Shown in pieces: positions 3,360 to 61,635 of a DNA stretch of 64,000 bases. The position numbers and the translations under genes were made by a program. The number at the start of each line of letters is the position of its first letter. The first letter of the stretch is position 1. This DNA is from Escherichia phage vB_EcoM-RPN242. The DNA lies in sequence record OL656110.1. One strand, given 5' to 3'. Under the pieces are notes generated by a model. That model ran no database searches. It was not told the origin of the DNA and saw nothing but the letters and a program-made list of their open reading frames with translations.

Positions 3360-3383
3360 AAGAAAATACCCCCATGGATGATG

Positions 3384-3394
3384 GGGGTATTTAG
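3384..3394 (-). promoter_or_regulatory. late promoter motif CTAAATACCCCC with inverted copy at the ribosome-binding site
   Basis: Minus strand reads CTAAATACCCCCATCATCCATGGGGGTATTTTCTT-ATG; 11-12 bp inverted repeat AATACCCCCAT / ATGGGGGTATT. Confidence 0.6.
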
Positions 3395-19554: not shown

Positions 19555-20205
19555 TTATTCTCCAAAGTCGATCTTCATATTGTCTGTTGCAAGCCCCTTC
19601 TCAAGATCATCTGCTAAAGCATTGTCGGTCTGCAGAGAAGAATCCTTGTACACGTCCGGTTCGTTCTCTTCGTCCAAGATGGACAGACGTTTGTCGATAT
19701 CGTCGATCTCCGGAACGCCCGTATCGAAGTTTTCGTTGCCGTACTGGAACAACGTGCACGGCAGAGAGAACGTATACCATTTGCCAAATTGCATGAAGTC
19801 TTCATCGTTGTTCGGGTTGTTGACCTTGAAGATCTTGTTCGCCAGTGGTAGATAGATCAGGTCACCTTCCTGAGGTTGTTGTTCAAACCCAACACCGTTG
19901 CCTATCACCTCGGCAAATCGGCGGCGCGAGATAGAGAACGTCACTTCGTCTTGCAATTGGATACCCCCAAACTTCTCCCACATCTGGGTGTTGAAGCCCT
20001 GATAATCCTGCATGTACGCTTCGATGTCGAACGCCTGGTCGAATCTGTGGTTAGCGTCGTTGGTGATAGGAAATTTTTCAACGATGGAACGGGGTATATA
20101 CTTGATGTCTATCCCGCGCAACTCAATCATTTCCTGTACCAAATCTTCAATCAGCTTCTGTGTGCCTTGGTGATTGGTGGCGTTGAAATATTTAGAAGTG
20201 GCCAT
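19555..20205 (-). CDS. neck protein (gp14 position)
   Basis: 216 aa; synteny only; late promoter upstream. Confidence 0.45.
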   Translation of the reverse strand: MATSKYFNATNHQGTQKLIEDLVQEMIELRGIDIKYIPRSIVEKFPITNDANHRFDQAFDIEAYMQDYQGFNTQMWEKFGGIQLQDEVTFSISRRRFAEVIGNGVGFEQQPQEGDLIYLPLANKIFKVNNPNNDEDFMQFGKWYTFSLPCTLFQYGNENFDTGVPEIDDIDKRLSILDEENEPDVYKDSSLQTDNALADDLEKGLATDNMKIDFGE

Positions 20206-20224
20206 ATCAATACCCTCAATTTTG

Positions 20225-20235
20225 AAGGTATTTAG
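20225..20235 (-). promoter_or_regulatory. late promoter CTAAATACCTT with inverted repeat to ribosome-binding site
   Basis: CTAAATACCTTCAAAATTGAGGGTATTGAT-ATG on the minus strand. Confidence 0.5.
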
Positions 20236-32108: not shown

Positions 32109-32140
32109 TTGAAAATACCCCATAAAGGATTTGCCAATAT

Positions 32141-32151
32141 GGGGTATTTAG
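32141..32151 (-). promoter_or_regulatory. late promoter CTAAATACCCC with inverted repeat
   Basis: CTAAATACCCCATATTGGCAAATCCTTTATGGGGTATTTTCAA-ATG; 12-bp arms. Confidence 0.6.
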
Positions 32152-32226: not shown

Positions 32227-34776
32227 TCAATTGAGTTTTGATATCTCTACAGTTATACCGAATACGTTATTCGGTCTACTTGTGGTTGTAGCTATAGTTA
32301 GCTCAAAGAAATGCGCGTTTATATCTGGTGACTGTGTGTATCCCGCAGAATTAGTTAATGTTACATTGAGTGATATGTCCGAATCTGTTACGCCGTTTAT
32401 GCGAATTTCATTCACAGGTCCTGATAGCGACGCGGCGGAAGTTGCACCTATCTTATGATTTACCAGGTACGTCTTCTCAATATAAGCAACGGATCCCCCA
32501 TTATTATATGAAGAGCACGACTTAACTTTTACCAGTAGGTTTTGCGATTCTAATGTTCCATAGTTATCAAAAATCTTTAAAACTTTGTTAGCAGATGCAC
32601 CAGAAATGCTTCCACAGTTCACTTCCCATAATGTAGTTCTATTCGCATTCGGTGCGTTCTCATACATGTAGAAACTACCATCTGGAATTACCCTGTTGTT
32701 TATTAATGTTTTCAGATTTCCGCAGTTACCTATTAGTCTCACGTGGGCATTGATGTTTGTTAATGTTACTGTTTTTATTTTTGATTCTGTGTTTGCGCAC
32801 CTAATAGAACCACCCATGCAGTTAATATTTTCGTAATAGACATTACCAGCTTGCCACGGTAACGCGAAAATATCGTCCGCCCGGTTTTTATAATTGAGCG
32901 CAACATTAGCAGCAATCCAGTCTCGGTGCATAGAAGAATCACCAGTAAATGTGACGATACCTATTTGAGGGTCTTCTGCTGGGGTTGTGCCCAAACTGGC
33001 AACTATATTGATATCTGTCAGCTCACCACCAAGACATCTTATATTTGGCATATCATATTCTTCGGTGGCAAATACGTTACGCCATTTAGCATCAAAACCA
33101 GCGTGCGAGTCCATCGTGGCGAAGTTATTATAACCGAAGCACTTTTTAACCTCGAACTTGTTGAACCATGTTGTTGGGGAGGCAGCATGTCTACAGAATG
33201 ATGCTGTGATGCTATCAACAACTGTATCGTAAGTGCCCGCCGCAGGGCTGATAGGATACTGACACCTATTAGCAACTACATTGCCAATCCTTGGCATATA
33301 GCAAGCTATTAATAAGTACGAGGAACCACCACTGGTTTCCACGTCACCAGAAAAGACTGGCATATAAAAACCACGGAACCATGAAGATGAAACCCCAAAT
33401 GATGCGGTGCCTATATTAACAAAAGATGAGTTATCACGGTTGTTAAAGTGCTCCATCTTGAAGTTATTGAAAATCAACCTTACCGGTTTGTACCTGTTAA
33501 CCTTAACGTTGTTTGCTACTAGATGATCGAATAGCGCTGGCCTATCAACTTTCATATTAGAACCAGATTCACGCTCTGCAATAAACAACTCCCTTGAGTT
33601 AAAATTCCACTGAGTCTCGTACGTCTTGTTGTCCTCTATATAAATCAAATCACCCTCTACAGCCCCAGCCACCCGCGCAACTGTGGAGCCGCTTACCATA
33701 TCAGCTAGAAGTGAAGACTGAATCTCGGTTGATGACAGGTGCATTTCCACCCCATCAGAGGCCCCGAACAGCTTTATGCCAGACCAATCAACAACTAAGT
33801 TTTTATCAATCGACAATAGTTCTATATTACTGGTTACAGTAACCTCACCGACTGACCTGAAGTATCCACGGCACCCGGATGTGTAAGCTACAGTCAGGAA
33901 TTCAGATATAGTCTGGCCTGATACAGACCCTCCAGCGGTTATGCCGAAATCATCTCCGCAAATCGCGCTTATAGGGGTAAATGATGTTAATGCCGGCTGG
34001 GAAGCAGACCTGACCCACATTGTACCGCCGGTTGAGCATACCGAATCTACAGGTAACTCTGCCTCCGTGGACGCAATCATCTCGTAAAAAGAGGAGAAAT
34101 GTTTGTATATTCCAGCAACTTTGTAACCACCAGTTATAGGATTAGTCCCAGCGACAACTATACCAGCAGGACCGGAGAACGCCTTACCAGTGCGTTCTTG
34201 TAGTAGCACATCGTTGGCGTTCACTAGTGTACCGCCCGACTCAAAGCTACCATCTACTAGATTATAGCCTGCTGTTGCATAGCTACGGCGCAACGCCTCA
34301 CGGGTCTGTGTACTTGTGAACTGATTGGAGCACCTAATATAACCACTCCCTGGAAGAGTAGGGTCTGTGCCAGCAGGAACTACTTTAGGTAATGCCCCAT
34401 CCCAACGGTACTTCCCATCTGTAAAGACAACTAATTCATTCTTGGTATTAACTGTTACACCGGTATCAAATGACCCAGACAATGTGACGTACTCTTCACG
34501 AGATACAGCCAATTCCCCGAGATCTACAGAACCTGCTGAATGTACCAGGATTGCCTGTTCGTTCAGACTTATCGCAGTCGTTCCTGAAACAATACCTGAA
34601 GGAAGAGAATAAGCCCGTTGGGTAGACTCATCATAAATTACTTTAAATCCACTGAGATCAATACCAGCAGTGAAATAAATGACTTCGTCTTCTTTGACAC
34701 CGAAATTTCGAGCGATAGATTGTTTGTTAACTTCTATGGAAGTGGAGCCGCGTGGTTGATTGAATTGAGAAATCAT
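32227..34776 (-). CDS. tailspike protein (849 aa)
   Basis: Shared N-terminal module; contains a 160-bp segment nearly identical to one in the next gene. Confidence 0.7.
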   Translation of the reverse strand: MISQFNQPRGSTSIEVNKQSIARNFGVKEDEVIYFTAGIDLSGFKVIYDESTQRAYSLPSGIVSGTTAISLNEQAILVHSAGSVDLGELAVSREEYVTLSGSFDTGVTVNTKNELVVFTDGKYRWDGALPKVVPAGTDPTLPGSGYIRCSNQFTSTQTREALRRSYATAGYNLVDGSFESGGTLVNANDVLLQERTGKAFSGPAGIVVAGTNPITGGYKVAGIYKHFSSFYEMIASTEAELPVDSVCSTGGTMWVRSASQPALTSFTPISAICGDDFGITAGGSVSGQTISEFLTVAYTSGCRGYFRSVGEVTVTSNIELLSIDKNLVVDWSGIKLFGASDGVEMHLSSTEIQSSLLADMVSGSTVARVAGAVEGDLIYIEDNKTYETQWNFNSRELFIAERESGSNMKVDRPALFDHLVANNVKVNRYKPVRLIFNNFKMEHFNNRDNSSFVNIGTASFGVSSSWFRGFYMPVFSGDVETSGGSSYLLIACYMPRIGNVVANRCQYPISPAAGTYDTVVDSITASFCRHAASPTTWFNKFEVKKCFGYNNFATMDSHAGFDAKWRNVFATEEYDMPNIRCLGGELTDINIVASLGTTPAEDPQIGIVTFTGDSSMHRDWIAANVALNYKNRADDIFALPWQAGNVYYENINCMGGSIRCANTESKIKTVTLTNINAHVRLIGNCGNLKTLINNRVIPDGSFYMYENAPNANRTTLWEVNCGSISGASANKVLKIFDNYGTLESQNLLVKVKSCSSYNNGGSVAYIEKTYLVNHKIGATSAASLSGPVNEIRINGVTDSDISLNVTLTNSAGYTQSPDINAHFFELTIATTTSRPNNVFGITVEISKLN

Positions 34777-34802
34777 GATAATACCCCAAGAATGACCAAT
34801 AT

Positions 34803-34813
34803 GGGGTATTTAG
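34803..34813 (-). promoter_or_regulatory. late promoter CTAAATACCCC with inverted repeat
   Basis: CTAAATACCCCATATTGGTCATTCTTGGGGTATTATC-ATG. Confidence 0.6.
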
Positions 34814-34848: not shown

Positions 34849-34872
34849 AGAACCCCGCCGAAGCGGGGTTTA
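34849..34872. terminator. hairpin CCCCGCCGAAGCGGGG
   Basis: Third copy of this hairpin core; just past gene end 34876. Confidence 0.55.
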
Positions 34873-34875
34873 TTG

Positions 34876-37800
34876 TTATGATGCATTTGCTGATTTGTTT
34901 AAATACCATCCGTAGTTCGTTTTTATTAACTCTACAATCTCCCCGTTTGTCTTGTATTTTGTCTTCCCGGTTTCTGTATTATACATAATTCTGTCGGTGA
35001 CAGAGACGCCGGACGCTTGTTTTGAAAGCGTCACAACAGTGTTGCCGGATAACGGAAGTATTGATATCCTTTGTCCGATATATCCACCAGTGATTGACGT
35101 TATCACTGATCCATTACTTCCAGCGTCGAGATAAAATACGTCGCAAGAGTTGGCATCTAATGTAGTTGTTTCAGTTGTTAGCGTTTTCGTTGGCGACGAA
35201 ATACCAAGCACAAATGATGAACCGTTCCATGTATATTCTTTGCCGTCAGCAAGACCAATCACTCGCTCGTTGATTCTTAAATCGGGTGCAAAAGTCTTTC
35301 TAATGTCAACAATTTTAATAGTGCCACAAAACGGGACAGGGATAATCACGTTACCTGCAAGCCTGTTAATAGTGTAAATTGAATTGCTGATCGTCCACTG
35401 TCTACCGTTCCACATACTCATAAATGAACCAGAAGATAGAAGCACGGTTGAACTGTAACCTGCTTCCAAAGCATTTGTGTCTGTTATCATGCCGCGATCA
35501 ATAGGATTGCTAAAATCGTCAGAGCAGTCGAATACTCTAATGTTTGCACGTCCTTCATAATTACCTGATTGACCAACAGGTGCGATAACAAAGAGATAAT
35601 CCTTATCAAAACCATAATCAGGGCCAACGCGTAAGAACGACGCCATACAGTTAGTGGTAGGGAACTGTCCTTTTACAACCCACTTTCCACTAGAATCTTG
35701 CATCAATAGCTTTTGAATGGCTATTTTGTACGGCTTAGTGGTCGTATCTGCTGCGCGCTCAATGGCAAACGGTGTTCCGTCATAAAAATTTCCGAAACCA
35801 ATTTCACCGCCAGATGTACCGAGAGTATCGGTATCCGTGTCTTTCCTGACATCTTCACCGTAGGTGTAGTTACCGCTATCATCAACTGTGATATACCCCT
35901 CAACTATTCCGGTAGATAGTTGAGTTAAATAATAATAAGGAATTGCAGGCTTGCCATTTATGTACCCGACTTGTGTAGGTGCAATTGATGAGAAGTAAGC
36001 ACCAGATGGTTTAACCAATGGCGTAATATCAACAGGGGTGCTCCATGTATTGCCACCATCCTTTGATATGACATATTCAATAGTTGATGTTGTGTCAGGG
36101 TTAGTTCCTTGTTGTGCATGCCCCCACCCAGTAATCCCCTTCATTGATGTAAAGAAACAATACAAATATCCATCAAGATTATTTAGGAATAGTACCGTTT
36201 CAGAAGTGGCATATCCTGGCCCTTTGTTAACAACAGTTCCAGTGGTCCAGTTCACACCGTTATCATCAGATATTAGGTAATCAATGTGCATAGGTGTGCC
36301 GTCCTGTCCTGGGTCAATATTAGCACCATCCTTCACTGTGTAGATACATACCACCCGCCCACTTGGAAGTGACACCGCTTTTGGTGCAAAGTTAAATACA
36401 TTCTCCACATAAGTTTGCAACTGTAAGCGCAAATTATTGTTAAAGCTTCTTGAGTATTTATTCCCAAAAGCGAAATTAAATCTATTTTTTGCAATTGATT
36501 GCCTTTTGTAAAGCTCAAAATCTTTATCCTTGACTGCTCCGTTAACTAAATCAACTCCGTCATCATCAGCCAGGTCACTTCTTAAACTTACATCACCAAC
36601 ACTTAACCATTTTCCTGCACCAGTACCACCAGCACTCCCTGGGGTTGAGCCAGCAGAAACCTCTTTAGGCAATTCCCCATCCCAGCGATACTTCCCATCT
36701 GTAAAGACAACTAATTCATTCTTGGTATTAACTGTTACACCGGTATCAAATGACCCGGACAATGTGACGTACTCTTCACGAGATACAGCCAATTCCCCGA
36801 GATCTACAGAACCCGCTGAATGCACAAGTACAGCGGAAGGACTAAGACTGACAGCAGTAGTACCAGGGGCAATATCAGCAGGCAAGGGATAAGCCCTTTG
36901 CGTCTCCTTGTCATAAATAACTTTATACCCACTTAACGCAGCACCAACACTAAAATAAACGACCTCTGTATCTTTAACATTGGTTACACGAGCAACTTCC
37001 CGCAAAGTATAATCAATTTGATTGTAGATGTTTGGTGTTCCATTGATAATTACAACAACTTCATCCTCTGGTTCCAGTTCTTGCGCAAGAGTGATTTTAC
37101 TGGTTGATGGATCGAATGTGAATCCCAGATTTTTATACTGGCGACTTCCGTTTATATCAATGGCCGGAACATCGTCAACAACGACGTCCAACGTGATTTC
37201 GGTTTCACCGCCAATCGCTGAACCCCCATTATAGACCCAGGTAATCGTAGAAGAACCAGAACCACCGACATTACCCAATTGAATAGGAGTATATTCAATC
37301 ACCTGAAGTTCTGTGCTGGCTGGCAAAGAAGGACTGAAAGTGATTACATTCCCATCTAGTGAATATTTGGATTCCGCAAGACGTTTTCCGTCAGCATACA
37401 CGTCCACGATTGTTGGTGGAGTATTGAGAGCGACAGAACTTGTTTCAGACGCCAAAATTTTTGTAAAGATTTCACGACTGTAGACACGGCCTTGGCCAAG
37501 ACCGACGCCGGATGTAATAATCCAACCTTGTTCAGGTCCAGACCAAGTGAACGTTGCTGATACGTTATCAGTTGTTATAGCCATGTCTTCAGTGGAGCCA
37601 TACAAATTATTTCCAGAAGGAGACACGGTCAATGGGTAAGTGGCAAATTTCCCATAAGCATCACAAATAGTAACGGAATCCCCAATACGCGTAGGGGAAG
37701 GGAGAACCACTGTAGATGCCCCTGTGGTATTATTAATGAGATAGCCTCGCCCTTCAGTGAGCGTTGCCGTAGAGGCATGCGGAAGGACTTCCCAGCGGAT

Positions 37801-38037
37801 ACCACCGCCACCCAGCGGCAACCATCCACCATTTTCATAGAAGCCCTCAAATTCGTCGGAGTCGGCATTGTAGCGAACGGAAGACGGGAGTCCTGCGCTG
37901 GCATTACCCTCGGGTAAAGTCAGGACAGCATCTGGTCCATGCTCAATCGTACCCGTGTTGAGGAGACCAGCCAAAGTAGACTGCTCTTCAGCCGCCAGAC
38001 CGAGAGGGAAAACAGGCTGTGTTGGTTTATTAGCCAT
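34876..38037 (-). CDS. long tailspike protein (about 1053 aa) with extended N-terminal domain
   Basis: ATG 38037 follows GGGGTATTTGAA; internal copy of the shared module (VARVTNVKDTEVVYF...YKVIYDKETQRAYPLP...VDLGELAVSREEYVTLSGSFDTGVTVNTKNELVVFTDGKYRWDG). Confidence 0.7.
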   Translation of the reverse strand: MANKPTQPVFPLGLAAEEQSTLAGLLNTGTIEHGPDAVLTLPEGNASAGLPSSVRYNADSDEFEGFYENGGWLPLGGGGIRWEVLPHASTATLTEGRGYLINNTTGASTVVLPSPTRIGDSVTICDAYGKFATYPLTVSPSGNNLYGSTEDMAITTDNVSATFTWSGPEQGWIITSGVGLGQGRVYSREIFTKILASETSSVALNTPPTIVDVYADGKRLAESKYSLDGNVITFSPSLPASTELQVIEYTPIQLGNVGGSGSSTITWVYNGGSAIGGETEITLDVVVDDVPAIDINGSRQYKNLGFTFDPSTSKITLAQELEPEDEVVVIINGTPNIYNQIDYTLREVARVTNVKDTEVVYFSVGAALSGYKVIYDKETQRAYPLPADIAPGTTAVSLSPSAVLVHSAGSVDLGELAVSREEYVTLSGSFDTGVTVNTKNELVVFTDGKYRWDGELPKEVSAGSTPGSAGGTGAGKWLSVGDVSLRSDLADDDGVDLVNGAVKDKDFELYKRQSIAKNRFNFAFGNKYSRSFNNNLRLQLQTYVENVFNFAPKAVSLPSGRVVCIYTVKDGANIDPGQDGTPMHIDYLISDDNGVNWTTGTVVNKGPGYATSETVLFLNNLDGYLYCFFTSMKGITGWGHAQQGTNPDTTSTIEYVISKDGGNTWSTPVDITPLVKPSGAYFSSIAPTQVGYINGKPAIPYYYLTQLSTGIVEGYITVDDSGNYTYGEDVRKDTDTDTLGTSGGEIGFGNFYDGTPFAIERAADTTTKPYKIAIQKLLMQDSSGKWVVKGQFPTTNCMASFLRVGPDYGFDKDYLFVIAPVGQSGNYEGRANIRVFDCSDDFSNPIDRGMITDTNALEAGYSSTVLLSSGSFMSMWNGRQWTISNSIYTINRLAGNVIIPVPFCGTIKIVDIRKTFAPDLRINERVIGLADGKEYTWNGSSFVLGISSPTKTLTTETTTLDANSCDVFYLDAGSNGSVITSITGGYIGQRISILPLSGNTVVTLSKQASGVSVTDRIMYNTETGKTKYKTNGEIVELIKTNYGWYLNKSANAS

Positions 38038-38070
38038 TTCAAATACCCCTAAATGTGTTCGTTTCATCTA

Positions 38071-38081
38071 GGGGTATTTAG
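38071..38081 (-). promoter_or_regulatory. late promoter CTAAATACCCC with inverted repeat
   Basis: CTAAATACCCCTAGATGAAACGAACACATTTAGGGGTATTTGAA-ATG. Confidence 0.6.
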
Positions 38082-39282: not shown

Positions 39283-40137
39283 TTAACTCCTTGAACTTTC
39301 TAGGAATACAGTAAACCCAGCAGGATGGAAATGCTGACGGAAGACGCGATCAAACACACCTTCAAAATCAGATACGTTGCCAGGAACTCTTATCACATAC
39401 GTGAATTCATCATAGTAGTAATCGTCACGCATTCCTGTCGCGCCGTCACATTCAAAGTTGTCATCCAGGCCACCAATTGCTTCCTTGGGATAATACACAC
39501 TCACTGGGCAACCAAAGTAAATCCAGAAGAACAATTCAATCGCTTTCTTCGTCCCGCGAATGCGATAAATGTGTTTAAGTAACTTCAACCAGCGTACATG
39601 GTCCAGTGTCCGGCGTTCAGTTCCCTCGACATACACAGAGAGTGTGTCTCCGTCTGAAGTCACCAAACTGTCCGAACCAACTGGCACAAACTTCCCGAAC
39701 TCCAGGAAGGACTTATCAACCGTTCTCTGGAATCCAAAATCAGCATACCAATCGTCGATGCGTTCGTTCTTGTCTTCCATTGAGATTAATGCTCGACCGT
39801 CCACGTCCAGCAAATCTTCGAAGTCTAGCGCCATCATGTTCTCAAACGTGCGCGTCAGGAACTTGTCTTCCAAGAAGTCTTTGGCCTCAGTACCTGGCGT
39901 CTTGCGCTTCTTGATGTCAATCAACTGCTCAATAGGAGACTGATCCGTATTTGGATTCACCCAACCACCAGTGTCTGCCAGATACGCCAAGATCTCCTCT
40001 TCGGTGAATCCCTGCTGGCGATACAACCAGTTGAAGAACGTATCCATAAACTCGATGAATACTGGGAATTCATTCTGGTAAAACAATGGGGTTTCATATT
40101 TCACCCCATTGTGCCCGTTATTAAGATCTTTGGACAT
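39283..40137 (-). CDS. baseplate-associated protein
   Basis: 284 aa; start overlaps the upstream gene by 17 nt, suggesting translational coupling; synteny only. Confidence 0.45.
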   Translation of the reverse strand: MSKDLNNGHNGVKYETPLFYQNEFPVFIEFMDTFFNWLYRQQGFTEEEILAYLADTGGWVNPNTDQSPIEQLIDIKKRKTPGTEAKDFLEDKFLTRTFENMMALDFEDLLDVDGRALISMEDKNERIDDWYADFGFQRTVDKSFLEFGKFVPVGSDSLVTSDGDTLSVYVEGTERRTLDHVRWLKLLKHIYRIRGTKKAIELFFWIYFGCPVSVYYPKEAIGGLDDNFECDGATGMRDDYYYDEFTYVIRVPGNVSDFEGVFDRVFRQHFHPAGFTVFLESSRS

Positions 40138-41899
40138 AACGCACCTCCGGCTCCACAGTTACAGCACCGATGCGGAGCACCTGATTCTGTGTGGCCTGAA
40201 TGTTCTGGTCAAGACCGTCTGGAGACACAATTATTGTCACACCCTCAGTGTTGTAGTTGGATACTATGATACGCTGGAGTTCAACAACGCCAGTCACATA
40301 ATCAACCGTCCCAACAGCTTGTACCAGATATTCCTTGGTCGTGTCTGTTGTACTCACCTTGTACATATTCAGGACACCACTGACGTCGCGTATGTAGTAA
40401 GTGAATTCGACCTCGGCCGGAAGCGGCTTAAACCCACTGATACGCACAGAACCAGACGCAATCGAGCGCCCAAACTCGAATGTGAAGCTGTCCAGTACCC
40501 CATAGTCTGGCTTGAAATGGCGCTTATACTTCACAGAAGTGATGTTTGACACTATCGATCTGTCTATGTCGGTGATGGCCGACTGTAACTGCTCTTTATC
40601 GAACAGTTCGTCGAATCCTTCTAGGTTCCCCAAGCCCCAGTTGACAACACCGTTCTTCACGACTGTCTTCAACTGCTCTTCGGTATAGGACGTGGAAGTC
40701 GGATCCCAGAACACGCGGGTGGTGACATCAACATAAGTCAGTTCAGCGTCGACAATCTTGGGTGTGATCGTGCCCACATTGTACTTGTCTAACGTCGCCA
40801 CGATATCTGCCTTCTCAGCGTCCGAGAGCGCCTCACCAACAGAAGGTATCACAGCAATGTAAACGTATCCGGAGTCGGGCGGAGAGAGCGTGTCGCCGCC
40901 ATATGCTTTGGCGCGGGAGACGTTGGAGAACAGACGCTCGGTCAACATAGCATAATCGACTTCGGCTACCGCCGCACCCTCAGCCTGATAAGCCAGCGGA
41001 GCAAGGCGCTTGATGTCCTCAATGCTCTCTGGGTCCGCACCGCCGGAAGAACGTTCTGACACCAGCTCAACATCTACAAGGTTGAATCCCCCGATGGAAG
41101 ACGCGGAGGACAAGGCAGTGATGTCATTGCCGTCTGCACCAGCTGTCTCCAGATACTGGAGGTACACGACGTTCCCGTCTTCTACTCGCTTACAGATATA
41201 CCCATCACCGAATTCGAACGTGTACATCCCGTCCAACCCCAGCTCAACGAAGTAGAGTTGCGCATACTGGCTCAAATCGAACGGGCTGACATATCGTGAA
41301 AAGGTAGACAGCACGTCAGATGTCTCAGATTCCTGCACCTGCACCACCATATGGTCGATGTCCACGGAAGAAGATGGGATCACATAGGTGGAGATCGCGC
41401 TACCTTCCACATCATAGGACTTGTACAGCCAGTTACCCTGTATGAGTTTGATGTTCTCGAACTTGTAAGAGCCGTCTACAAGAGAGGCGCTCACAGGTTG
41501 GTCAACCGTGAAGTTATAGGATTTGCCATCCTTCACCCCAATGAACATCGCGCGGCGATCCATTACAATCGTGTCTGGAGCCGTGCTGGCGTCATATGGA
41601 GTGACTGTGACGTTTGCGTACAGGTACGCGGCCTGGTAGTTGTGAGGGGTGTAAGATAAGAACCCCGCCGCCAGACCGACATTAGAACGCTGTTGAGCAG
41701 AGTGAAGATGGCTTTCGCCATTCAGCATGTTCTGCATGAACCCGATAGAGTTGGCATCCGAGGCCAAGATACGCACGATTGCACTGAGACCAGAACCTTC
41801 AAAGTCATAATCCTTGAAAGTTGGATCAGCTTTCATGCGCTTCTTGATAAGATACTCGAAAGCCCTGACATCGAGTGAAGGGACTGTTTGCGTGGCCAT
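40121..41899 (-). CDS. baseplate wedge protein (gp6-like)
   Basis: About 592 aa from ATG 41899 (track start 41950 is TTG); first gene of the late module. Confidence 0.55.
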   Translation of the reverse strand: MATQTVPSLDVRAFEYLIKKRMKADPTFKDYDFEGSGLSAIVRILASDANSIGFMQNMLNGESHLHSAQQRSNVGLAAGFLSYTPHNYQAAYLYANVTVTPYDASTAPDTIVMDRRAMFIGVKDGKSYNFTVDQPVSASLVDGSYKFENIKLIQGNWLYKSYDVEGSAISTYVIPSSSVDIDHMVVQVQESETSDVLSTFSRYVSPFDLSQYAQLYFVELGLDGMYTFEFGDGYICKRVEDGNVVYLQYLETAGADGNDITALSSASSIGGFNLVDVELVSERSSGGADPESIEDIKRLAPLAYQAEGAAVAEVDYAMLTERLFSNVSRAKAYGGDTLSPPDSGYVYIAVIPSVGEALSDAEKADIVATLDKYNVGTITPKIVDAELTYVDVTTRVFWDPTSTSYTEEQLKTVVKNGVVNWGLGNLEGFDELFDKEQLQSAITDIDRSIVSNITSVKYKRHFKPDYGVLDSFTFEFGRSIASGSVRISGFKPLPAEVEFTYYIRDVSGVLNMYKVSTTDTTKEYLVQAVGTVDYVTGVVELQRIIVSNYNTEGVTIIVSPDGLDQNIQATQNQVLRIGAVTVEPEVRYVQRS

Positions 41900-41935
41900 G
41901 ATAATCTCCATCACCTGAGTTTGAATATGGTGTTG

Positions 41936-41946
41936 AAGATATTTAG
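41936..41946 (-). promoter_or_regulatory. late promoter variant CTAAATATCTTC
   Basis: About 40 nt upstream of ATG 41899. Confidence 0.5.
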
Positions 41947-46320: not shown

Positions 46321-46389
46321 GACGAGATTCTCCTTTTCTATACTCCTGTAGATACGCTATGATAAGCCAATGTCTACAGGAGAAATAGA

Positions 46390-47664
46390 ATGAACAAATT
46401 CGCTGCACAACCCCTCGCTCCATATATCCCGTTCCGCACGTATATCCCGTTCCACACGTTAGGGAAAGGTCCATATAAAACGATTTTTGATGTCCTCTCT
46501 CTTCATCGTGAACATATTCACTGGGAAGACTACCTCTACAAACACACTCCGTGTGAACTCGTCGCCAACCCCGAAACTAACCAGCAGGTCTGGTTCAAGC
46601 GTGAAGATTACTTCGCGCCGCTATCTTGTTATATGAATGGCAAGCAGGGCATCAATGGCAGTAAGTTGCGCCAGGCCATCTGGTTGATGGTTGAGCACCT
46701 GAAGACCGGAGGCTCCCCTGACATCATCCATGGTACTGTCGTTGGTAGTCCGCAGTCCCCTATGGCGACGGCAGTCTCTCGGCACTTCGGCGGCAAGACA
46801 ACCACTGTACTCGGAGCGACCAAACCCACCACCTGTATGAACCACGACATGGTGGCAATGTCAGCCTGGTTTGGTAGTGAGTTCAACTTCGTCGGCTCGG
46901 GTTACAACAGCACGATCCAGCCGCGCTGTAAGAAGTTGATCGAACAACAGAATCCAAAGGCGTATTATCTGGAATATGGTATCACCCTCGACCACACAGC
47001 GCATTCTCCTGAGCGCATCGCTGGCTTCCATATGCTGGGTGGCGAGCAGGTTGCCAACATCCCTGACCATATTACCGATCTGATTATCCCAGCCGGATCC
47101 TGCAACTCTTGCACAAGCATCCTGACCGGGCTGGCAATGCATCCGAAGCCTAATCTGAAGCGTGTGTATCTGATTGGCATCGGTCCTAACCGCCTTGACT
47201 TTATCGAGAGCCGTCTGCGCATCATCGGCAAACATGCCAATCTGCCGCACATTGTCGACTTCACCCGTCGCTATCACGACAACCCAGACTATGTACACGG
47301 CAAGAAGGAGCTTCAGCATGCCTCTAAGAGCGTTTCGCTGGCTGGCCTCCTAAGTGGTATCAGGCAGAAGGAAGAGCCAGAGGTCGTGCTTCCTCGCTTT
47401 GAGGTACACCATTGGGATCTTCATACCACTAATTGGGTTCGTTACAATGATCTGATGGAATATCAGTGGGGTGATATTGAGTTGCATCCTCGCTATGAAG
47501 GCAAGGTCATGACCTGGGTTCAACAACACAAGCCCGAGTTGCTCAACGAGAACACCCTGTTCTGGATTGTGGGTAGCAAGCCATACATCGAGCCGATGAA
47601 GGCAGCATGCCCTGAGCTGGCTATCCCTGAAACAGTTCCTGTAAACGACTTCACCCCTTCCTGA
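46390..47664 (+). CDS. putative PLP-dependent enzyme (fold-type II, ACC-deaminase/D-cysteine-desulfhydrase-like)
   Basis: 424 aa; GINGSKLRQ resembles the GGNKxRK PLP-lysine loop and GSPQSP the Gly-rich phosphate loop; AGGAG upstream. Confidence 0.45.
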   Translation: MNKFAAQPLAPYIPFRTYIPFHTLGKGPYKTIFDVLSLHREHIHWEDYLYKHTPCELVANPETNQQVWFKREDYFAPLSCYMNGKQGINGSKLRQAIWLMVEHLKTGGSPDIIHGTVVGSPQSPMATAVSRHFGGKTTTVLGATKPTTCMNHDMVAMSAWFGSEFNFVGSGYNSTIQPRCKKLIEQQNPKAYYLEYGITLDHTAHSPERIAGFHMLGGEQVANIPDHITDLIIPAGSCNSCTSILTGLAMHPKPNLKRVYLIGIGPNRLDFIESRLRIIGKHANLPHIVDFTRRYHDNPDYVHGKKELQHASKSVSLAGLLSGIRQKEEPEVVLPRFEVHHWDLHTTNWVRYNDLMEYQWGDIELHPRYEGKVMTWVQQHKPELLNENTLFWIVGSKPYIEPMKAACPELAIPETVPVNDFTPS

Positions 47665-47670
47665 TCCATC

Positions 47671-47681
47671 CTAAATACCCC
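47671..47681 (+). promoter_or_regulatory. late promoter CTAAATACCCC with inverted repeat, plus strand
   Basis: CTAAATACCCCATGCAAACCAGTGTGGGGTATTT-ATG. Confidence 0.6.
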
Positions 47682-47704
47682 ATGCAAACCAGTGTGGGGT
47701 ATTT

Positions 47705-48169
47705 ATGAAAACCTTTCTTGAATATCTTAAAGAGGCGTCTGAGGCTGAACCCAAGTTCGATAACATGCGCCTCTTTCACGGCTCCAACGTAGGATTCGAT
47801 GTCTTCGACTTTGAGCGCTTCGGTCAGACTGACTGTGGTACGATGGGACCTGGGTTCTATCTGACAGGCAACGAAGAAGAGGCACAGCGCTATGCAGAGA
47901 ACGCCGTCCGCTACCGCCAGAGTGGTGAACCCCATGTTCTGGTGTTTAACGTCAGTGTTAAGAAGCCCCTCGAACTCGACTCTAACAATGTCTCGGCCTG
48001 GGAAGACGCTATGCGTGAACTTGGTATCGAACCGGGTAAGATCCATGAGAACGCCGCCGAGCTAATTGCTCAGGGCTATGACTCCACCATCGTGCTGGAC
48101 CGCTTTGGGTTGCCTATGGTGCGTGAGATCGTCCTGTACAAACCAGGCCTGGCAGTGCGGGAAGCCTAA
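47705..48169 (+). CDS. late-expressed hypothetical protein, 154 aa, with an HGS motif
   Basis: RLFHGSN...GFYLTGN suggests a nucleotide-modifying fold but is unverified; driven by a late promoter. Confidence 0.55.
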   Translation: MKTFLEYLKEASEAEPKFDNMRLFHGSNVGFDVFDFERFGQTDCGTMGPGFYLTGNEEEAQRYAENAVRYRQSGEPHVLVFNVSVKKPLELDSNNVSAWEDAMRELGIEPGKIHENAAELIAQGYDSTIVLDRFGLPMVREIVLYKPGLAVREA

Positions 48170-52016: not shown

Positions 52017-53199
52017 TAAGTTAGCAGCATAGGGGCTTTGGTTGGCGACAACCATCGAATAACTCTCTTAATTGCTGGGAAGTCTCTTTAGAGATAATCA
52101 GCAGCCAAGGTCGGCCACGAAGACCTAAATACTCTGTAACCACGGTGAAGGAGTAAGGTCATGAAGGAAATCAAGAGTCTGTTCTATCGAAATGATTTGG
52201 TAATTGAAGAATCTAAGATAGAAGAATATTTGAAGTTCTGTAAGGAACACAGTTATGATGGTGATGGATACAGTGAACGCCATCATATACTGCCTCAGGC
52301 GCATTATCCTGAGTTCTCTAAAGAAGAATGGAACATTGTAAACCTGTTATATAAAGATCATGTAGAGGCTCATCGCCTGTTGCATGAAGCATTACCAGAA
52401 GATAAATCAGCGTTCTTCGCCTACTTCATGATGAAATCCCATAACGGGGAACTAAGTGAGGAATTGAGAAGAAAGAATGTTGAAATGCTGACGGGAGAGG
52501 GAAATCCTTCGAAGAGGGAAGATGTCAGAAGAAAGATATCCAAATCTAAGAAGGGTGTTAGAAGAGCAGATATGAAGGGTAAGGCTTATTTCGGCGCTGA
52601 TAAAGAAACAGCTGAAAGAATTAAAGCCAATTCCAGTCTTGTTCACAAAGGCACTGTCCCCGTAAGACTCCTGGATGGTAGTGTTATCAAAGTTTCAACG
52701 CAAGACCCGAGATATTTGAGTGGTGAGTTGAAATGTATAATAGGTGCAAAGAAAGGTCAGGTGGGACCAAACACCGACCCAAAAGCGAAGAAGAAATTTA
52801 AAGATTCTTTAGAGAAAAGGAAGGAAATGTTTGCCAGAATGAGTGGGGAAGAAATAACCACTCATTGCTTGACACAACAGGATTTAGGTAAGAAGACTGT
52901 AGAGTGGGGCAAGTTGGCAAGAAACTTCAAACGACTCTTTGGTTACGCTGGGTTAAACCCAGATGATTTCCTTGAAGTAGTGGGTGACAAGGTTCAACGA
53001 CTATCGAAAGCAAGACCGACGACTAAGCGTCTGATCTGAAGCGAGTAGAGTAGGGGCAAGCGCCTCGAAATGGAGAGAATCTCTAGACAGTTCTGGAGAT
53101 TGTGATATAGTCTGGCCTGTATGGTGACATACAGCAGTGTTCGGTAAACTGAATGACGAACACGGGGGATGAAATAGCGAGCATCCCTGAACATAAGCG
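52017..53199 (+). mobile_element. group I intron carrying an HNH homing endonuclease gene
   Basis: R-like element GTTCAACGACTA at 52992-53003 and S-like GATATAGTC at 53104-53112; 5' exon ends in U, intron ends in G; splicing gives DLNSL|YPHIIQQYNLGPETI. Confidence 0.7.
52161..53039 (+). CDS. HNH homing endonuclease (intron-encoded)
   Basis: ERHHILPQ...NIVNLLYKDHVEAHRLLHE is an HNH motif; GGAG upstream; 3' end overlaps the intron core. Confidence 0.8.
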   Translation: MKEIKSLFYRNDLVIEESKIEEYLKFCKEHSYDGDGYSERHHILPQAHYPEFSKEEWNIVNLLYKDHVEAHRLLHEALPEDKSAFFAYFMMKSHNGELSEELRRKNVEMLTGEGNPSKREDVRRKISKSKKGVRRADMKGKAYFGADKETAERIKANSSLVHKGTVPVRLLDGSVIKVSTQDPRYLSGELKCIIGAKKGQVGPNTDPKAKKKFKDSLEKRKEMFARMSGEEITTHCLTQQDLGKKTVEWGKLARNFKRLFGYAGLNPDDFLEVVGDKVQRLSKARPTTKRLI

Positions 53200-54781
53200 A
53201 TATCCACACATCATTCAGCAATACAACCTCGGTCCAGAGACTATCGTTGGCGACAAACACCAGCGCCGCGAGATTATTGAGGCTATGTGTGAAGAGCTGG
53301 CTGCTCAGATGAATAACATGGCAACGCCGATGCACAAACGTCGGTTGATGAAAGCCCTTCACGACAAGCTGTTGCGTGCGGTTGACGAACGCCTGCAGGT
53401 TGTTGATGAGTTGGTTGCCCTGGGTGAGTTCCACTTTGAAACCCTGCGCCGCTACAACGTGTCGTTCACGCCGAACGTTCAATTCTTCAGCAACGAGAAG
53501 ATGTCGTTCCTGTCTGAAATCATGCGTGGTATCTACAGCGACCGTAAAGTAGAGAAGGCCAAGGGTCTGAAGTATGAGCAGTGGGCTGGCTGGTGTAAAG
53601 AGATGTCGAAGGGCGACTTCCATCTTGAGTCTGCCATGAAGTCTCGCTACTATGACCCAGAGTGGTATGAAGAGCACAAGAACATTGATCTTGATGCCCT
53701 GACCGAAGTGATGAAGAAGTGGGAAGACCTGGGCGTCGCTCAAGATACCCTACAGCAAGGTCTGAAGATCTTGATGAACGCAGGTTATGGCGCTATCTCA
53801 AACGTCTGGTTCAAAGAGTACTTCAACCTCAACATTGCCGAAGCCATCACCACATCCGGTCAGCTGATCAACAAGTGGAACAAGCGTTACACTGATGACT
53901 ATCTGAACAAGCTGTGTGGTACAACAGGCCAGGACTTCGTCATCGCAGGGGATACCGACTCCAACTACATCTGTATTGAGCGTCTTGTCAAGCAGTTGTG
54001 GCCTGATGTTACTGACCATCATGCTATGGTTGATAATATCGACCAATGGATCAAAGACAACTACCAGCCGAAGACCAATGAGTGGGCACAGCTTCTGTGT
54101 AACACCATGAACGGATTTGAACAGCGCATGGTGTGGGAGCGTGAGGTCATTGCGTCAGCCGCTGTCTGGCGAGCCAAGAAGATGTATGCCATGGCCGTGT
54201 ACGACAGTGAGGGTATCAAGTATGAGAAGCCGAAGATCAAGTTCAAAGGTCTGGAAGCCCGCAAGTCCACCACGCCGGAATGGTGTCGTGAGCGCCTTGT
54301 CAAGTGCTATGAGAAGATCCTACTCGGCACCGAAGAGGAAGTACAGACGCTCATCTCCCAGTACAAAGAGGAGTATATGAAACTCTCTGTAGACGATATC
54401 GCCAAGGCGTCAGGCGTGTCCGACATAGAGAAGTGTGTGGCTGCTGACGGATCGTTTATATCTGGTGCTCATTTTGCTGCCAAGGCGTGTGTGGGCTACA
54501 ACCGTCTGGTTGAGAAGAACGAAGATCTGGGTCTACCGATGATCGAGTCGGGTGATAAGGTACAGATGGTGTTGTTGAAGCCGGGCAACCCGTTTGGGCA
54601 GAACTACTTTGCATATCCTGAGTTCTTCCCAGAGGAGCTTGGTCTGGGCAAATGGGTGGATTATCAGGCGGCCTTTGAGAAGTCCTTCATTGATCCGATT
54701 CAGTCTATCCTCGACGTGGTCGGCTGGTCACACAAGCGCCGTGTGAACCTTCTTGCCATGATGCAAAAGAAGAAAGGTTGA
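53200..54781 (+). CDS. DNA polymerase, family B, exon 2 (motif A second half, motif C, thumb)
   Basis: Begins ...YPHIIQQYNLGPETI; contains VIAGDTDSNYI (motif C). The track's ATG at 53153 lies inside the intron. Confidence 0.85.
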
Positions 54782-54843
54782 TTCAATAAACCAAAGGGGG
54801 ATATAATTCCCCCTGTTAACCCTTTGACAAACAGGTGATTGAA

Positions 54844-58060: not shown

Positions 58061-58434
58061 AAATTCAAATCCCTCGCGATGCTGTGGCTGTTGCGATCGA
58101 CTACACCGGAAACGCCAAGCACATTACTGCCGTGCGCCTGATTCCTGAAAAGAACTGCGTCATCCCTCAGTTCCAGCTGAATGCCAATCCGTCGTCCAAA
58201 GACTTCGGAAAGTGGTTGCAGGCTGCTCCGTTCCGTACCCAGACGAACGCTCAGATGTTCATCTCGGGTAAGACCCACACTGCAGCCCGTCTGTGGTTCG
58301 TGACCGCTGACCGTCGCTTTGTCGATATGTGGGAACGTCCGATGGGGTTCGTGAAGCCGGAAGATATTCAGCTGGCTCCTGAGCCTGAAGCTGTGGCTCC
58401 TGAAGAGGAAGCGAAAGATGCATCATTTATCTAA
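58057..58434 (+). CDS. hypothetical protein, about 125 aa
   Basis: ATGA overlap with the upstream stop; track ORF 57922..58434 is over-extended. Confidence 0.45.
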   Translation: MKIQIPRDAVAVAIDYTGNAKHITAVRLIPEKNCVIPQFQLNANPSSKDFGKWLQAAPFRTQTNAQMFISGKTHTAARLWFVTADRRFVDMWERPMGFVKPEDIQLAPEPEAVAPEEEAKDASFI

Positions 58435-59644
58435 AATGCCGACGGGCTATACGCCTCCGGCTGAATGGAAGTACCCGATTGACCTGGCTGTTGATTATCG
58501 CAAGCCTGAGAATCGCATGTACTTGCTCAAGGCTTGGGTGGAGGCGCTGTCCTACACAGAAGAGCACAACCAGCAGATGCGTCTGATGGACTATGCGATC
58601 GAAGTCACTGAAGGCATCAGCCTCGAACAGAAAGTCGAGCGCAAGATCTGGATGGCATTCCTGTGGGGTTGTTGCTATAACGCCGTCGGGCCGTGGACGA
58701 TCTACAGTGAGTTCCCTGTGCCGCCTCAGTCTAAGGAAGAGATGCAGCGCTTCTCTGATTGGTATAATCTGAACTTTGAACGCATGCGATTCGATACCGA
58801 CTGTCGCTACCGCAAGTCCAAGATGATCCCGTGTGTTCAGTCCTATATTGACTGGCTGGCTGGCCGTACTCAATATGACGCTTTCCGTGGGATGTTGGTG
58901 TGCATCGATAAGACAGAACAATTCACCCAGCTGTGGGACACGGCGATGTCCTGGAAATACTTCGGTCGCCTGAGCGCCTGGAACTTCCTGGAAGCCCTGA
59001 ACATGGTATTCGGAAACGAATACACCATTGACGTCCCTGGCTTCATGCTGCGTGATCGTGATGGAAGCGAGTCCAACCGTAATGGCGCGGCGTTCTTGTC
59101 CAACCGTGACGATTGGGTGACTAAACACGGGAAGAAAAAGATCAACGGTTGTCCTATCACGGATGAAGAGTGTGACATCCTTGAGGCTGACCTTGAGCAG
59201 GCGTTCCAGGATTGTGTGGCTGAGTTCGGGCACCTGACGTTCATCAACCGTCTGAACTTTGAAACCTCCGGTGCTTGTTGGCTGAAGAAATTCTTCCGAC
59301 TGAAGAATACCCGTTACATCGGGTGGGACGCAGAGCGTACCTGGGATGAGATAGACTACATGGAACGCGTCTGGCCTGAATACTCCTGCGCAGCGCTCTG
59401 GGAAGCCCGTTCGCTCTGGCTGCCAGATACCCTGTTGTGCGAAAAGGCTCCTGCAGGGCACGTTCCAGGCGTCCAGAAGTGGAAGATGCCTGTGTTCTTT
59501 GAGACTGGTGTTCCTCTGCACATCTGGCATCTGCAAAAGGGTACGCGTTGGGAGCCTGACCAGGTGTATCGAGAATTGGGTAAACCGAAGATTGATAAAC
59601 CGAAGTCCAACAGCGTCAACCTCATGGCACTCTTGAAACGCTGA
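58418..59644 (+). CDS. hypothetical 408-aa protein, candidate base-modifying transferase by context
   Basis: GAGGAAG upstream; no motif recognised by eye; assignment rests on neighbourhood with the kinase only. Confidence 0.5.
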   Translation: MHHLSKMPTGYTPPAEWKYPIDLAVDYRKPENRMYLLKAWVEALSYTEEHNQQMRLMDYAIEVTEGISLEQKVERKIWMAFLWGCCYNAVGPWTIYSEFPVPPQSKEEMQRFSDWYNLNFERMRFDTDCRYRKSKMIPCVQSYIDWLAGRTQYDAFRGMLVCIDKTEQFTQLWDTAMSWKYFGRLSAWNFLEALNMVFGNEYTIDVPGFMLRDRDGSESNRNGAAFLSNRDDWVTKHGKKKINGCPITDEECDILEADLEQAFQDCVAEFGHLTFINRLNFETSGACWLKKFFRLKNTRYIGWDAERTWDEIDYMERVWPEYSCAALWEARSLWLPDTLLCEKAPAGHVPGVQKWKMPVFFETGVPLHIWHLQKGTRWEPDQVYRELGKPKIDKPKSNSVNLMALLKR

Positions 59645-59680
59645 TATAAATATCCTCGCCTATAAAGTGAGGATATTATC

Positions 59681-59848
59681 ATGTTACAAGATCTGCTGGT
59701 TTATGCGCTTCCTGGCGTGGTTGTCGGCTTCGTAGCTGGCGCTCTGGTATTCCGCAAACACGCGCAAGACGGTGAAGTGATTGTTCAGAAGGGTAAAGAC
59801 ATCCTGGAACAAATCGAAGCCAAACTGGAAGAGCTGAAGAAAAAGTAA
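59681..59848 (+). CDS. small membrane protein, 55 aa
   Basis: MLQDLLVYALPGVVVGFVAGALVFRK...; ribosome-binding site GAGGA lies inside an 8-bp inverted repeat ATATCCTC/GAGGATAT. Confidence 0.4.
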   Translation: MLQDLLVYALPGVVVGFVAGALVFRKHAQDGEVIVQKGKDILEQIEAKLEELKKK

Positions 59849-59875
59849 TCTGATTGCGATTGCGTTCTTCAATAA

Positions 59876-59916
59876 AGGGGAATGGGTTAATATTAGCCCG
59901 TTCCCCTTTCTTTTTG
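59876..59916 (+). terminator. rho-independent terminator
   Basis: AGGGGAATGGG...CCCGTTCCCCT followed by TTCTTTTTG; preceded by the TTCTTCAATAAA motif. Confidence 0.7.
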
Positions 59917-59930
59917 CAAGGAAATACATC

Positions 59931-60143
59931 ATGGCAATGCAACGAATTGAAGATATGTCCCTACTGGATATGGAAGCGACTTTTGGTGATTACTTTGAGT
60001 CCACTCCGAAACAAAAAGACCCTCTGGTTGGCCGTCTGGTGGTTTCTGAAGCGTTCGCACAGAAAGTTCGCGAAGGTCTTCCACCTGAATATGGGTGCTT
60101 CCGTAATGGCGCTTCCGTTATCGTCATGGGTGAATCTAAATGA
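59931..60143 (+). CDS. hypothetical protein, 70 aa
   Basis: AAGGAAA upstream. Confidence 0.5.
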   Translation: MAMQRIEDMSLLDMEATFGDYFESTPKQKDPLVGRLVVSEAFAQKVREGLPPEYGCFRNGASVIVMGESK

Positions 60144-60526
60144 CACAGTCCGAATACAAACAGTACCTGTACGATCTGTTCATGAAAGAAACGGATGGTA
60201 CACTCCACCCTAAGAAAGCCACTATCGTCTTGCTGTATTCACAAGGTGCCCTGTCATTCTCCTATCTTTTCAAAGAATTGGATCTGATGGGCATTGAATA
60301 TAAAAAGCACATTACGCCAGAACGCACTCTGAAGCGCGCAATCGCTCACTGCGTCCACTCGGTGGCGACTGTTATGTTCCGCCATCACATTACATTCGAT
60401 GAAGCTCTTGACCCACAGTATCACGAAGAGCGTTGGGATCTGTTGTTAAAGAACGGTGCCAAGCCTGAGCACAAAGATCAACTCCTTGGGATGACCAAGG
60501 CGCAACTCGTGGATGGTGTGTTATGA
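60140..60526 (+). CDS. hypothetical protein, 128 aa
   Basis: ATGA overlap with the upstream stop. Confidence 0.5.
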   Translation: MTQSEYKQYLYDLFMKETDGTLHPKKATIVLLYSQGALSFSYLFKELDLMGIEYKKHITPERTLKRAIAHCVHSVATVMFRHHITFDEALDPQYHEERWDLLLKNGAKPEHKDQLLGMTKAQLVDGVL

Positions 60527-61635
60527 TCTATCTCCTGTTTGGTGTGCCATTGATACTGGCCATCCTGTTTGTGGTCTACCACCGCAAGACCCATGAGCCG
60601 AAAGAGACTCTGATTGCGACGGCGATTGTGGTGGTGCTATCCTGTCTGATTCAGGTCGGGGCTTATGCTGCGTTCTCCCTCGGCAGTTCAGGGGACGTTG
60701 AGATACTGAACGGGTACGTCACTGCAAAGGAACGGAATAAGGTGAGCTGTGAGCATTCATATGAATGTATGTGCTATTACACAACATCTTGTACAGGTTC
60801 AGGAAATAACCGATCTTGTACACAAACGCGTCATTGCAGCACATGCTATGAGCACTCTTATGACGTTGATTGGGATGTATTAACAACCGTCGGTGATCTG
60901 AGCATTGACCGTATTGATCGTCAGGGTACTACAGAGCCTCCGCGTTGGACACAAGTTAAAATCGGGGAACCTGCGGCACGTGAACATTCATATATGAATT
61001 ATGTGCTGGGTAACAAAGACTCTCTGTTCTCTCGTTCAGACCAGCAGTTTGCTGAGCGCTTCAAAGACAAGATTCCGAAGTATCCCGAAGTCTATGACTA
61101 CTATCGTGTCACTCGTGTACTGAATGTGTCTGGTCTGGCGTTACCGACCACATACTGGAACGATTATCTGAACAATACTCTGAAAACATTAGGTGCTTCA
61201 CGTCAGGTCAATATCGTCTGGGTTGTGACTTCCGGCCAGCCAGTTGAATACTTCCAGGGCTTGGTCTATGCTTGGGATGGTGGTAAAAAGAACGACGTTA
61301 TCGTCGTGACCGACATCAGCAAAGACCTGAAGATCAACTGGGGTAAGAGCACTTCGTTCGCTGATGGTATGCATAACCGTGAACTCCACTCTCGCAATGG
61401 TATGGCTCTCACAGGACACGACATGGGTGTCGGTGTCATGGCTGATGTTGTCGCTAACATCACCAAAGGCTACAACCGCGTTGAGATGAAGGAAATGGAG
61501 TACCTGAAGTGGCGGGAACTCAAGACCTGGGAAGTTGTGATTGTTGTTCTGCTAGGCTGTCTGCCGTTCACCGCAATTTTCATATTACAGCGAATGGAGT
61601 ACAATGGTGGTCGTCGTTATCCGTTTAATTTTTAA
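60523..61635 (+). CDS. Cys-rich integral membrane protein, 370 aa
   Basis: N- and C-terminal hydrophobic segments; Cys cluster CEHSYECMCYYTTSCTGSGNNRSCTQTRHCSTCYEHSY. Confidence 0.55.
   Translation: MIYLLFGVPLILAILFVVYHRKTHEPKETLIATAIVVVLSCLIQVGAYAAFSLGSSGDVEILNGYVTAKERNKVSCEHSYECMCYYTTSCTGSGNNRSCTQTRHCSTCYEHSYDVDWDVLTTVGDLSIDRIDRQGTTEPPRWTQVKIGEPAAREHSYMNYVLGNKDSLFSRSDQQFAERFKDKIPKYPEVYDYYRVTRVLNVSGLALPTTYWNDYLNNTLKTLGASRQVNIVWVVTSGQPVEYFQGLVYAWDGGKKNDVIVVTDISKDLKINWGKSTSFADGMHNRELHSRNGMALTGHDMGVGVMADVVANITKGYNRVEMKEMEYLKWRELKTWEVVIVVLLGCLPFTAIFILQRMEYNGGRRYPFNF

Follow-up and report, generated by a model that had tools for sequence, protein, structure and literature searches.

Translational gating of phage genes by RNA hairpins has been documented experimentally for genes e, soc, and 49 and for I-TevI of bacteriophage T4, and for mobE of Aeromonas phage Aeh1 (PMC3014915). 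In this arrangement, a ribosome-binding site (RBS) that is paired on transcripts initiated upstream is free on transcripts from a late promoter embedded in the hairpin itself. Here, we describe a computational analysis of a hairpin that covers the RBS of a 55-aa membrane-protein gene (59681-59848, + strand) in a 64,000-nt stretch of DNA from Escherichia phage vB_EcoM-RPN242 (OL656110.1). This whole stretch is hereafter called the window, all positions refer to it, and features lie on the + strand unless stated otherwise. A first-pass annotation of the window, made from the sequence alone, had noticed the hairpin and proposed that the small gene is under translational control. We find that the 5' arm of the hairpin is overlapped by a match to the T4 late promoter box, and we consider it reasonably probable that the hairpin serves as a temporal translational gate of the T4 gene e/soc/49/I-TevI type. 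On this reading, the hairpin is a well-known T4-type device that is newly seen in the Ackermannviridae, and it involves no new principle.

The window derives from an Ackermannviridae phage of the SKML-39/Ag3-like Agtrevirus group. Over bases 59000-60600 it shares 97% identity with Salmonella phage SKML-39 and 95% with Shigella phage Ag3 (Ackermannviridae, Agtrevirus), and the 226 bases around the hairpin are 100% identical to those of SKML-39.

Results

The hairpin and the predicted occlusion of the ribosome-binding site

The 8-bp inverted repeat reported by the first-pass annotation, ATATCCTC (59650-59657) and GAGGATAT (59669-59676), is present exactly as it was described, and the GAGGA Shine-Dalgarno (SD) sequence (59669-59673) indeed falls within the stem, 7 nt ahead of the ATG at 59681. 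The perfect Watson-Crick stem is 9 bp long (59649-59657/59669-59677), and in RNAfold predictions it grows, via G-U and C-G closing pairs, to 11 bp (59649-59659/59667-59677) around the 7-nt loop CUAUAAA (59660-59666). The 5' arm, or anti-SD, therefore reads AAUAUCCUCGC and the SD-bearing 3' arm reads GUGAGGAUAUU. In both the minimum free energy (MFE) and centroid structures, this stem is enclosed by an outer interrupted helix in which 59631-59646, covering the final codons and the stop codon of the preceding gene, for amino acid:DNA transferase (ADDT), pairs with 59677-59691, comprising the AUG (59681-59683) and first codons of the 55-aa gene. As a result, the AUG is paired as well as GAGGA, and the whole interrupted helix (59631-59691) amounts to ~25 pairs.

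Folding of 59630-59700 gave -24.0 kcal/mol as compared to -10.25 ± 2.69 kcal/mol for dinucleotide shuffles (z = -5.11), with 0 of 200 shuffles as stable, and the 121-nt context (59600-59720) gave z = -4.47. Perfect stems of at least 8 bp are common in the window (33 vs. 10.5 ± 3.8 expected from Markov-1 simulations), and the size of the stem alone is unremarkable; its placement is far from chance. On modeled read-through RNAs (starts at 59400-59630), the unpaired probability was 0.00 for the SD and 0.02 for the AUG, and opening of 59666-59695 cost 23.5-24.7 kcal/mol, making the RBS opening cost of the 55-aa gene the highest among the 69 genes called in the window by a codon-usage-based caller. 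These predictions support, in silico, sequestration of both the SD and the AUG on transcripts that initiate upstream. No Rfam family matched the hairpin, sub-threshold hits being confined to the downstream terminator, and a literature search found no annotation or discussion of the hairpin.

A late promoter box in register with the 5' arm

The first-pass annotation's proposal of translational control through RBS sequestration thus stands in silico; what it overlooked is the late promoter box that would explain the mechanism. The sequence TATAAATA (59645-59652), an exact match to the T4 consensus for gp55-type late promoters, reaches four bases into the 5' arm. In T4, such boxes span -13 to -6, and the late consensus of Aeromonas phage Aeh1, CTAAATA, runs from -12. 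With the box at -13 to -6 according to this T4/Aeh1 rule, the late transcript would start at ~59658, the tenth base of the 11-base arm, and therefore the stem could not form. Indeed, RNA beginning at 59658 had a predicted RBS opening cost of 6.5 kcal/mol and an SD unpaired probability of 0.54, and was no more structured than its shuffles (z = +0.75).

A late promoter call at the orthologous site is already known. In the LIMEstone1 record (NC_019925), its authors independently marked the corresponding TAAATA, which precedes the orthologue of the 55-aa gene by 29 nt, as a "putative late promoter". None of the three late promoters given in the Ag3 paper corresponds to 59645-59652. The element TATAAAGT (59661-59668), to which the first-pass annotation had drawn attention as the content of the loop, does lie between the arms but is not conserved, and orthologues carry GCTGTTTAATTTTCT or GCTGTTTAACAG in its place. 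We considered it as a promoter or other functional motif and rejected it, as the loop is swapped for unrelated, indel-bearing sequence in orthologues and no workably spaced sigma-70 -35 hexamer accompanies it.

The late box of the phage family

Sequence comparisons indicate that CTAAATA is the late box of the Ackermannviridae. It occurs 15 times in the window vs. 4.9 expected, with 15 of 15 copies on the local gene strand of the gene map and ~12 of them directly upstream of a called gene start, including those of gp22, gp18, gp14, gp6, and the tail-spike genes. In the upstream regions of Ag3 late genes CTAAATA is likewise recurrent; gp23 has CTAAGTA, and gp19 and gp20 have CTAATTA. Bases 1-50000 of Ag3, which hold mostly early genes, contain few box-like matches (six), and three of these immediately precede the late baseplate genes gp48, gp54, and gp5. 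The exact TATAAATA was also tried as the family's late box and set aside, since its two window sites equal the chance level and late genes show CTAAATA, CTAAGTA, or CTAATTA.

Homologues of gp55, gp33, and gp45 have been reported in Ag3, CBA120, and ViI; these genes fall outside the window, and we saw gp33 and gp45 in the Ag3 record. In the 2011 CBA120 paper, the late recognition sequence of the Ackermannviridae phages was given as not identified, and our results now supply an in-silico late-promoter definition for this family.

The predicted early transcription unit

The ADDT gene (58418-59644 in the ORF list; Pfam PF18724, E = 4.4e-60) ends in a UGA codon at 59642-59644, 4 nt ahead of the 5' arm. 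Together with a 5-hmdU DNA kinase (PF18747), it represents the thymidine-hypermodification genes found upstream of the hairpin. A sigma-70-like promoter, TTGATT-18-TATAAT (54778-54807; 10/12 in a consensus scan), is the predicted source of early read-through and matches exactly an early promoter of Ag3 that its authors named "Porf237". A scan of the + strand from this promoter to 59874 found no convincing terminator, and terminator-like sites were not above chance. Downstream of the small gene, a TTCAATAA box is followed by an intrinsic terminator (59868-59915 in all; 16-bp stem at 59874-59909, then a T-run; -25.8 kcal/mol, z = -5.55), which is Torf248 in the Ag3 supplement. The 55-aa gene is predicted to form the 3' end of an early unit that starts at the 54778 promoter, takes in the DNA-hypermodification genes, and stops at the terminator (59874-59909).

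The TTCAATAA box is itself overrepresented in the window (12 vs. 2.6 expected), with sites including 4517, 5538, and 5798 on the - strand and 42204, 54782, 59868, and 62648 on the + strand. At several of these, including the terminator past the 55-aa gene, a G+C-rich hairpin comes next, followed by a T-run, and within the hairpin loop is a -10-like TATAAT, TATTAT, or TAATAT, ~14 nt past TTCAAT. This module resembles a combined terminator and early/middle promoter and is reminiscent of a MotA-box-type promoter.

Conservation in orthologues

The gene and its leader were found in 221 phage records and, among those examined, in 15 of 23 IMG/VR loci and 7 further metagenome or genome contigs. Three forms of the box, TATAAATA, CTAAATA, and CTAAGTA, occur among the 11 distinct leaders, and the register of the box with the stem is constant; in the CTAAATA and CTAAGTA leaders, the ADDT stop codon falls within the box. 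The loops are unrelated in sequence and differ in length. Of the 88 cells of the 8-bp core stem, 87 are paired; leader L033 has the single compensatory change, from C-G to U-A, and there are several G-U wobbles. We regard this conservation as supportive, not decisive.

Five loci (L012, L014, L018, L019, and L024) proceed straight from the ADDT gene to the conserved TTCAATAA box and terminator, with neither small gene nor hairpin. Since ADDT meets the same terminator in these relatives, the promoter-hairpin-gene cassette is an indel within a transcription unit that already existed.

The same design at other genes in the window

Among the 26 [C/A]TAAATA sites of the window, seven have a perfect stem of 9-12 bp that runs from 2-3 nt inside the box to 0-4 nt before an ATG; a perfect stem of that length alone (at least 9 bp) occurs at 0.5% of random sites. 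RBS opening costs were predicted for these and related sites on read-through RNA and on late RNA, and for the 55-aa gene (59681-59848, + strand) the cost would fall from 24.2 to 6.5 kcal/mol. On the - strand, it would fall (in kcal/mol) from 22.0 to 7.9 at a 242-aa gene of unknown function (2631-3359; hairpin 3364-3392), from 17.3 to 7.6 at the neck gene gp14 (19555-20205; hairpin 20206-20235), and from 20.4 to 9.9 at the baseplate wedge gene gp6 (40121-41899; hairpin 41903-41946). At three tail-spike genes, also on the - strand, the corresponding values are 20.0 to 7.2 (29700-32108; hairpin 32113-32149), 11.9 to 7.1 (32227-34776; hairpin 34780-34810), and 21.6 to 6.2 (34876-38037; hairpin 38042-38081). 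On the + strand, they are 23.6 to 11.3 at a 154-aa gene of unknown function (47705-48169; hairpin 47671-47705) and 14.1 to 5.2 at an HNH homing endonuclease gene (phrog_12434; 52161-53039; hairpin 52125-52160), where CTAAATA is accompanied by a 5' arm that pairs with the gene's GGAGTA SD.

The 5' arms complement the SD variant of their own gene (ACCCC/GGGGT, TCCTC/GAGGA, and CCTTCAA/TTGAGGG), and therefore it is the pairing, not a fixed sequence, that recurs. A near-identical CTAAATACCCC...GGGGTATTT cassette was also observed in 5 of the 8 other box-plus-hairpin sites.

Two further structures deserve mention. An 11-bp perfect palindrome at 47672-47705 gives each strand a late-type box, the + strand CTAAATA (47671) and the - strand ATAAATA (47700). 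Ahead of the gene at 46390-47664, a 10-bp stem, CTCCTGTAGA...TCTACAGGAG, lies over the SD (46335-46392, + strand) with an opening cost of 20.8 kcal/mol and is unaccompanied by a late box. A TATACT resembling a sigma-70 -10 element coincides in part with the beginning of its 5' arm, and this may be the same trick with another promoter class.

The 55-aa protein

Codon changes relative to orthologue L005 are 15 synonymous to 4 non-synonymous. Considering this excess and the retention of the gene in the 221 phage records, the ORF is real and, as judged from the sequence comparison, under purifying selection. As the first-pass annotation had it, the product is a small single-pass membrane protein, with a hydrophobic N-terminal transmembrane segment (residues ~5-24; Kyte-Doolittle 2.3) and a charged, probably helical C-terminal tail (RKHAQDGE...KLEELKKK). 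It belongs to phrog_3879, of unknown function. A search of 5.8 billion proteins returned nine clusters, all from Ackermannviridae, to which the gene is confined, and in some genera of which it is dispensable.

The suggestion that the protein is holin-like found no positive support: there is no Pfam hit, PHROG assigns no function, no recognizable lysis genes adjoin (the neighbors are ADDT and uncharacterized proteins), and several relatives do without the gene. Small size, a transmembrane domain, and a charged C-terminus fit a holin, but although a holin must have these attributes, they do not nearly suffice to identify one. In 2011, the holin of these phages was described as not identified, and the phages are listed among those that are spanin-less. 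A lysis role of the 55-aa protein is therefore conceivable, but nothing positive speaks for it. In NCBIfam, the sole signal was a sub-threshold match to ZapG (E = 0.018; 15 bits vs. a 150-bit cut-off). This weak resemblance lies in the N-terminal transmembrane and coiled-coil part of ZapG/YhcB, a protein associated with the host divisome.

Discussion

A proposed temporal translational gate

We propose that early transcripts from 54778 would run through the modification genes and on through the small gene. On such long RNA, the sequence just past the ADDT stop would pair with the SD and spacer, and the last ADDT codons would pair with the AUG, such that 30S subunits would be kept off the small gene. 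With the gp55-directed switch, a short monocistronic RNA extending from ~59658 to the terminator would be made. Since the box overlaps the 5' arm, this late RNA would be devoid of the anti-SD arm and, carrying a free 23-nt leader, would be translated. The result is a testable model in which a small membrane protein is kept untranslated while being transcribed as the tail of an early DNA-modification operon.

Several observations weigh against such a gate. When a longer portion of the predicted late RNA was folded, the AUG was still partly paired (unpaired probability 0.12). The box at this gene is of the T4 form, with A at -12, and not the C that is preferred in Ackermannviridae, and the number of exact copies of it in the window is that expected by chance. 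Termination of a ribosome at UGA 59642-59644 would open the outer helix together with some of the stem pairs, and the block may accordingly be leaky or function as coupling. The covariation test is weak, with a single compensatory pair and 87 of 500 shuffles scoring equal or better; the orthologues are close, and each arm is otherwise constrained, one by the promoter and the other by the SD. Finally, our literature search turned up neither mapped transcript 5' ends nor expression measurements for phages of the Ackermannviridae.

Alternative explanations

The most serious rival is translational coupling, whereby the hairpin would remain closed until opened by a ribosome that finishes ADDT. Synthesis of the small protein would then scale with translation of ADDT on the same mRNA, and any late promoter would be irrelevant. 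The geometry of the locus lends itself to this idea: the ADDT stop precedes the 5' arm by 4 nt, the outer helix is made of the last ADDT codons, and in leaders L028-L033 the stop codon is inside the box, 2 nt before the arm. However, a late-type box is retained in every orthologue, and a ribosome at the stop, judging from the size of its footprint, would open the outer helix and perhaps 3-5 inner pairs while CCUCGC/GUGAGG stays closed. Moreover, the combination of box and hairpin is also found where no upstream ORF ends nearby, as at two tail-spike genes (gaps of 62-75 nt) and at gp6, which heads a divergent region; ahead of its box, tail-spike gene 32227-34776 also has a terminator hairpin of its own (34851-34870). 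Coupling and termination are therefore disfavored as functions shared by the class, and we consider coupling an unlikely explanation of the hairpin.

The recurrence of the design in the window also invites a broader reading, in which an Ackermannviridae-wide cassette, carried by many separately promoted late genes (tail spikes, neck, baseplate, a homing endonuclease, and this membrane protein) and consisting of the box and a following 4-8 nt that are the reverse complement of the gene's SD/spacer, would permit translation only from the gene's own-promoter transcript, with the 55-aa protein as a candidate for a lysis-timing (holin/antiholin-like) function. We hold this full combination to be doubtful, and a shade more so than coupling.

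Incidental complementarity would attribute the palindrome, without any regulatory role, to a promoter box and its AT-rich downstream sequence happening to match an SD and its AU-rich spacer. The non-significant covariation, the independent reasons for which each arm could be conserved, and the abundance of stems of at least 8 bp in the window (33 vs. ~10 expected) all agree with this. However, pairing extends past the box and SD to G59658-U59668, C59659-G59667, and an outer helix of ~14 pairs, differing SD variants are matched by the 5' arms at different genes, and substitutions in orthologues keep the pairing in 87/88 core cells while the loop varies freely. Chance complementarity is thus quite improbable.

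Slightly less probable still is another kind of RNA element, namely a weak intrinsic terminator or attenuator ending the early unit or a site of RNase III/E processing or stabilization, because although the U-containing stretch AUAUUAUCAUGUU follows the stem, UAUUUUC follows some sister hairpins (3364-3392 and 32113-32149), and an interrupted helix of ~25 pairs could by its length qualify as an RNase III substrate, the terminator scan raised no flag here (4 T in the 8 nt after the stem, few G-C pairs), the strong canonical terminator that relatives lacking the gene retain comes after the gene, and one tail-spike gene has the dedicated terminator hairpin at 34851-34870 upstream of its box-plus-hairpin unit.

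A recurring cassette at late genes

The 55-aa gene is one instance among several, and the recurring promoter-RBS cassette, in which a CTAAATA-type box and an anti-SD arm precede tail-spike and other late genes, is a by-product of this analysis that holds more interest than the single hairpin. Tail-spike gene swaps are used to engineer these phages for diagnostics and biocontrol. Keeping the cassette or breaking it in such swaps would be expected to alter expression. The box-plus-hairpin repeats might also double as recombination points for the exchange of tail-spike modules.

Comparison with known systems

With the translational-coupling hairpins of polycistronic operons, the hairpin shares an SD that pairs with the end of the upstream ORF and a stop codon near the stem; it is unlike them in that a promoter box is embedded in the stem and in that sister hairpins have no adjacent upstream ORF. 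T4 I-TevI, T4 segB, and Aeh1 mobE (Gott, 1988; Gibb and Edgell, 2009, 2010; cited in PMC3014915) share the gating logic. Aeh1 in addition shares the CTAAATA late box, and the HNH endonuclease gene of the window (52161-53039) has the I-TevI/mobE arrangement. Unlike those genes, the 55-aa gene codes for a small membrane protein instead of an endonuclease and lies outside introns and other genes.

The likeness to T4 gene e (lysozyme; McPheeters et al., 1986, reviewed in PMC3014915) is close. As predicted for the 55-aa gene, early RNA initiated upstream folds the SD and AUG of gene e into a helix, a TATAAATA late promoter lies in the DNA of the helix's 5' strand, the late RNA does without that strand and is translated, and making the product early in infection would do harm or serve no purpose. 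The two differ in phage family, gene, and stem sequence, and gene e alone has mapped 5' ends and a 100-fold effect on translation, the corresponding features of the 55-aa gene being predicted from sequence. T4 soc and gene 49 resemble the 55-aa gene in being small, late, and equipped with their own promoter downstream of earlier transcription, with a sequestered RBS. Their products are not homologous to the 55-aa protein, and the 55-aa gene differs from both in having its own terminator, the whole forming a compact indel cassette of promoter, hairpin, gene, and terminator.

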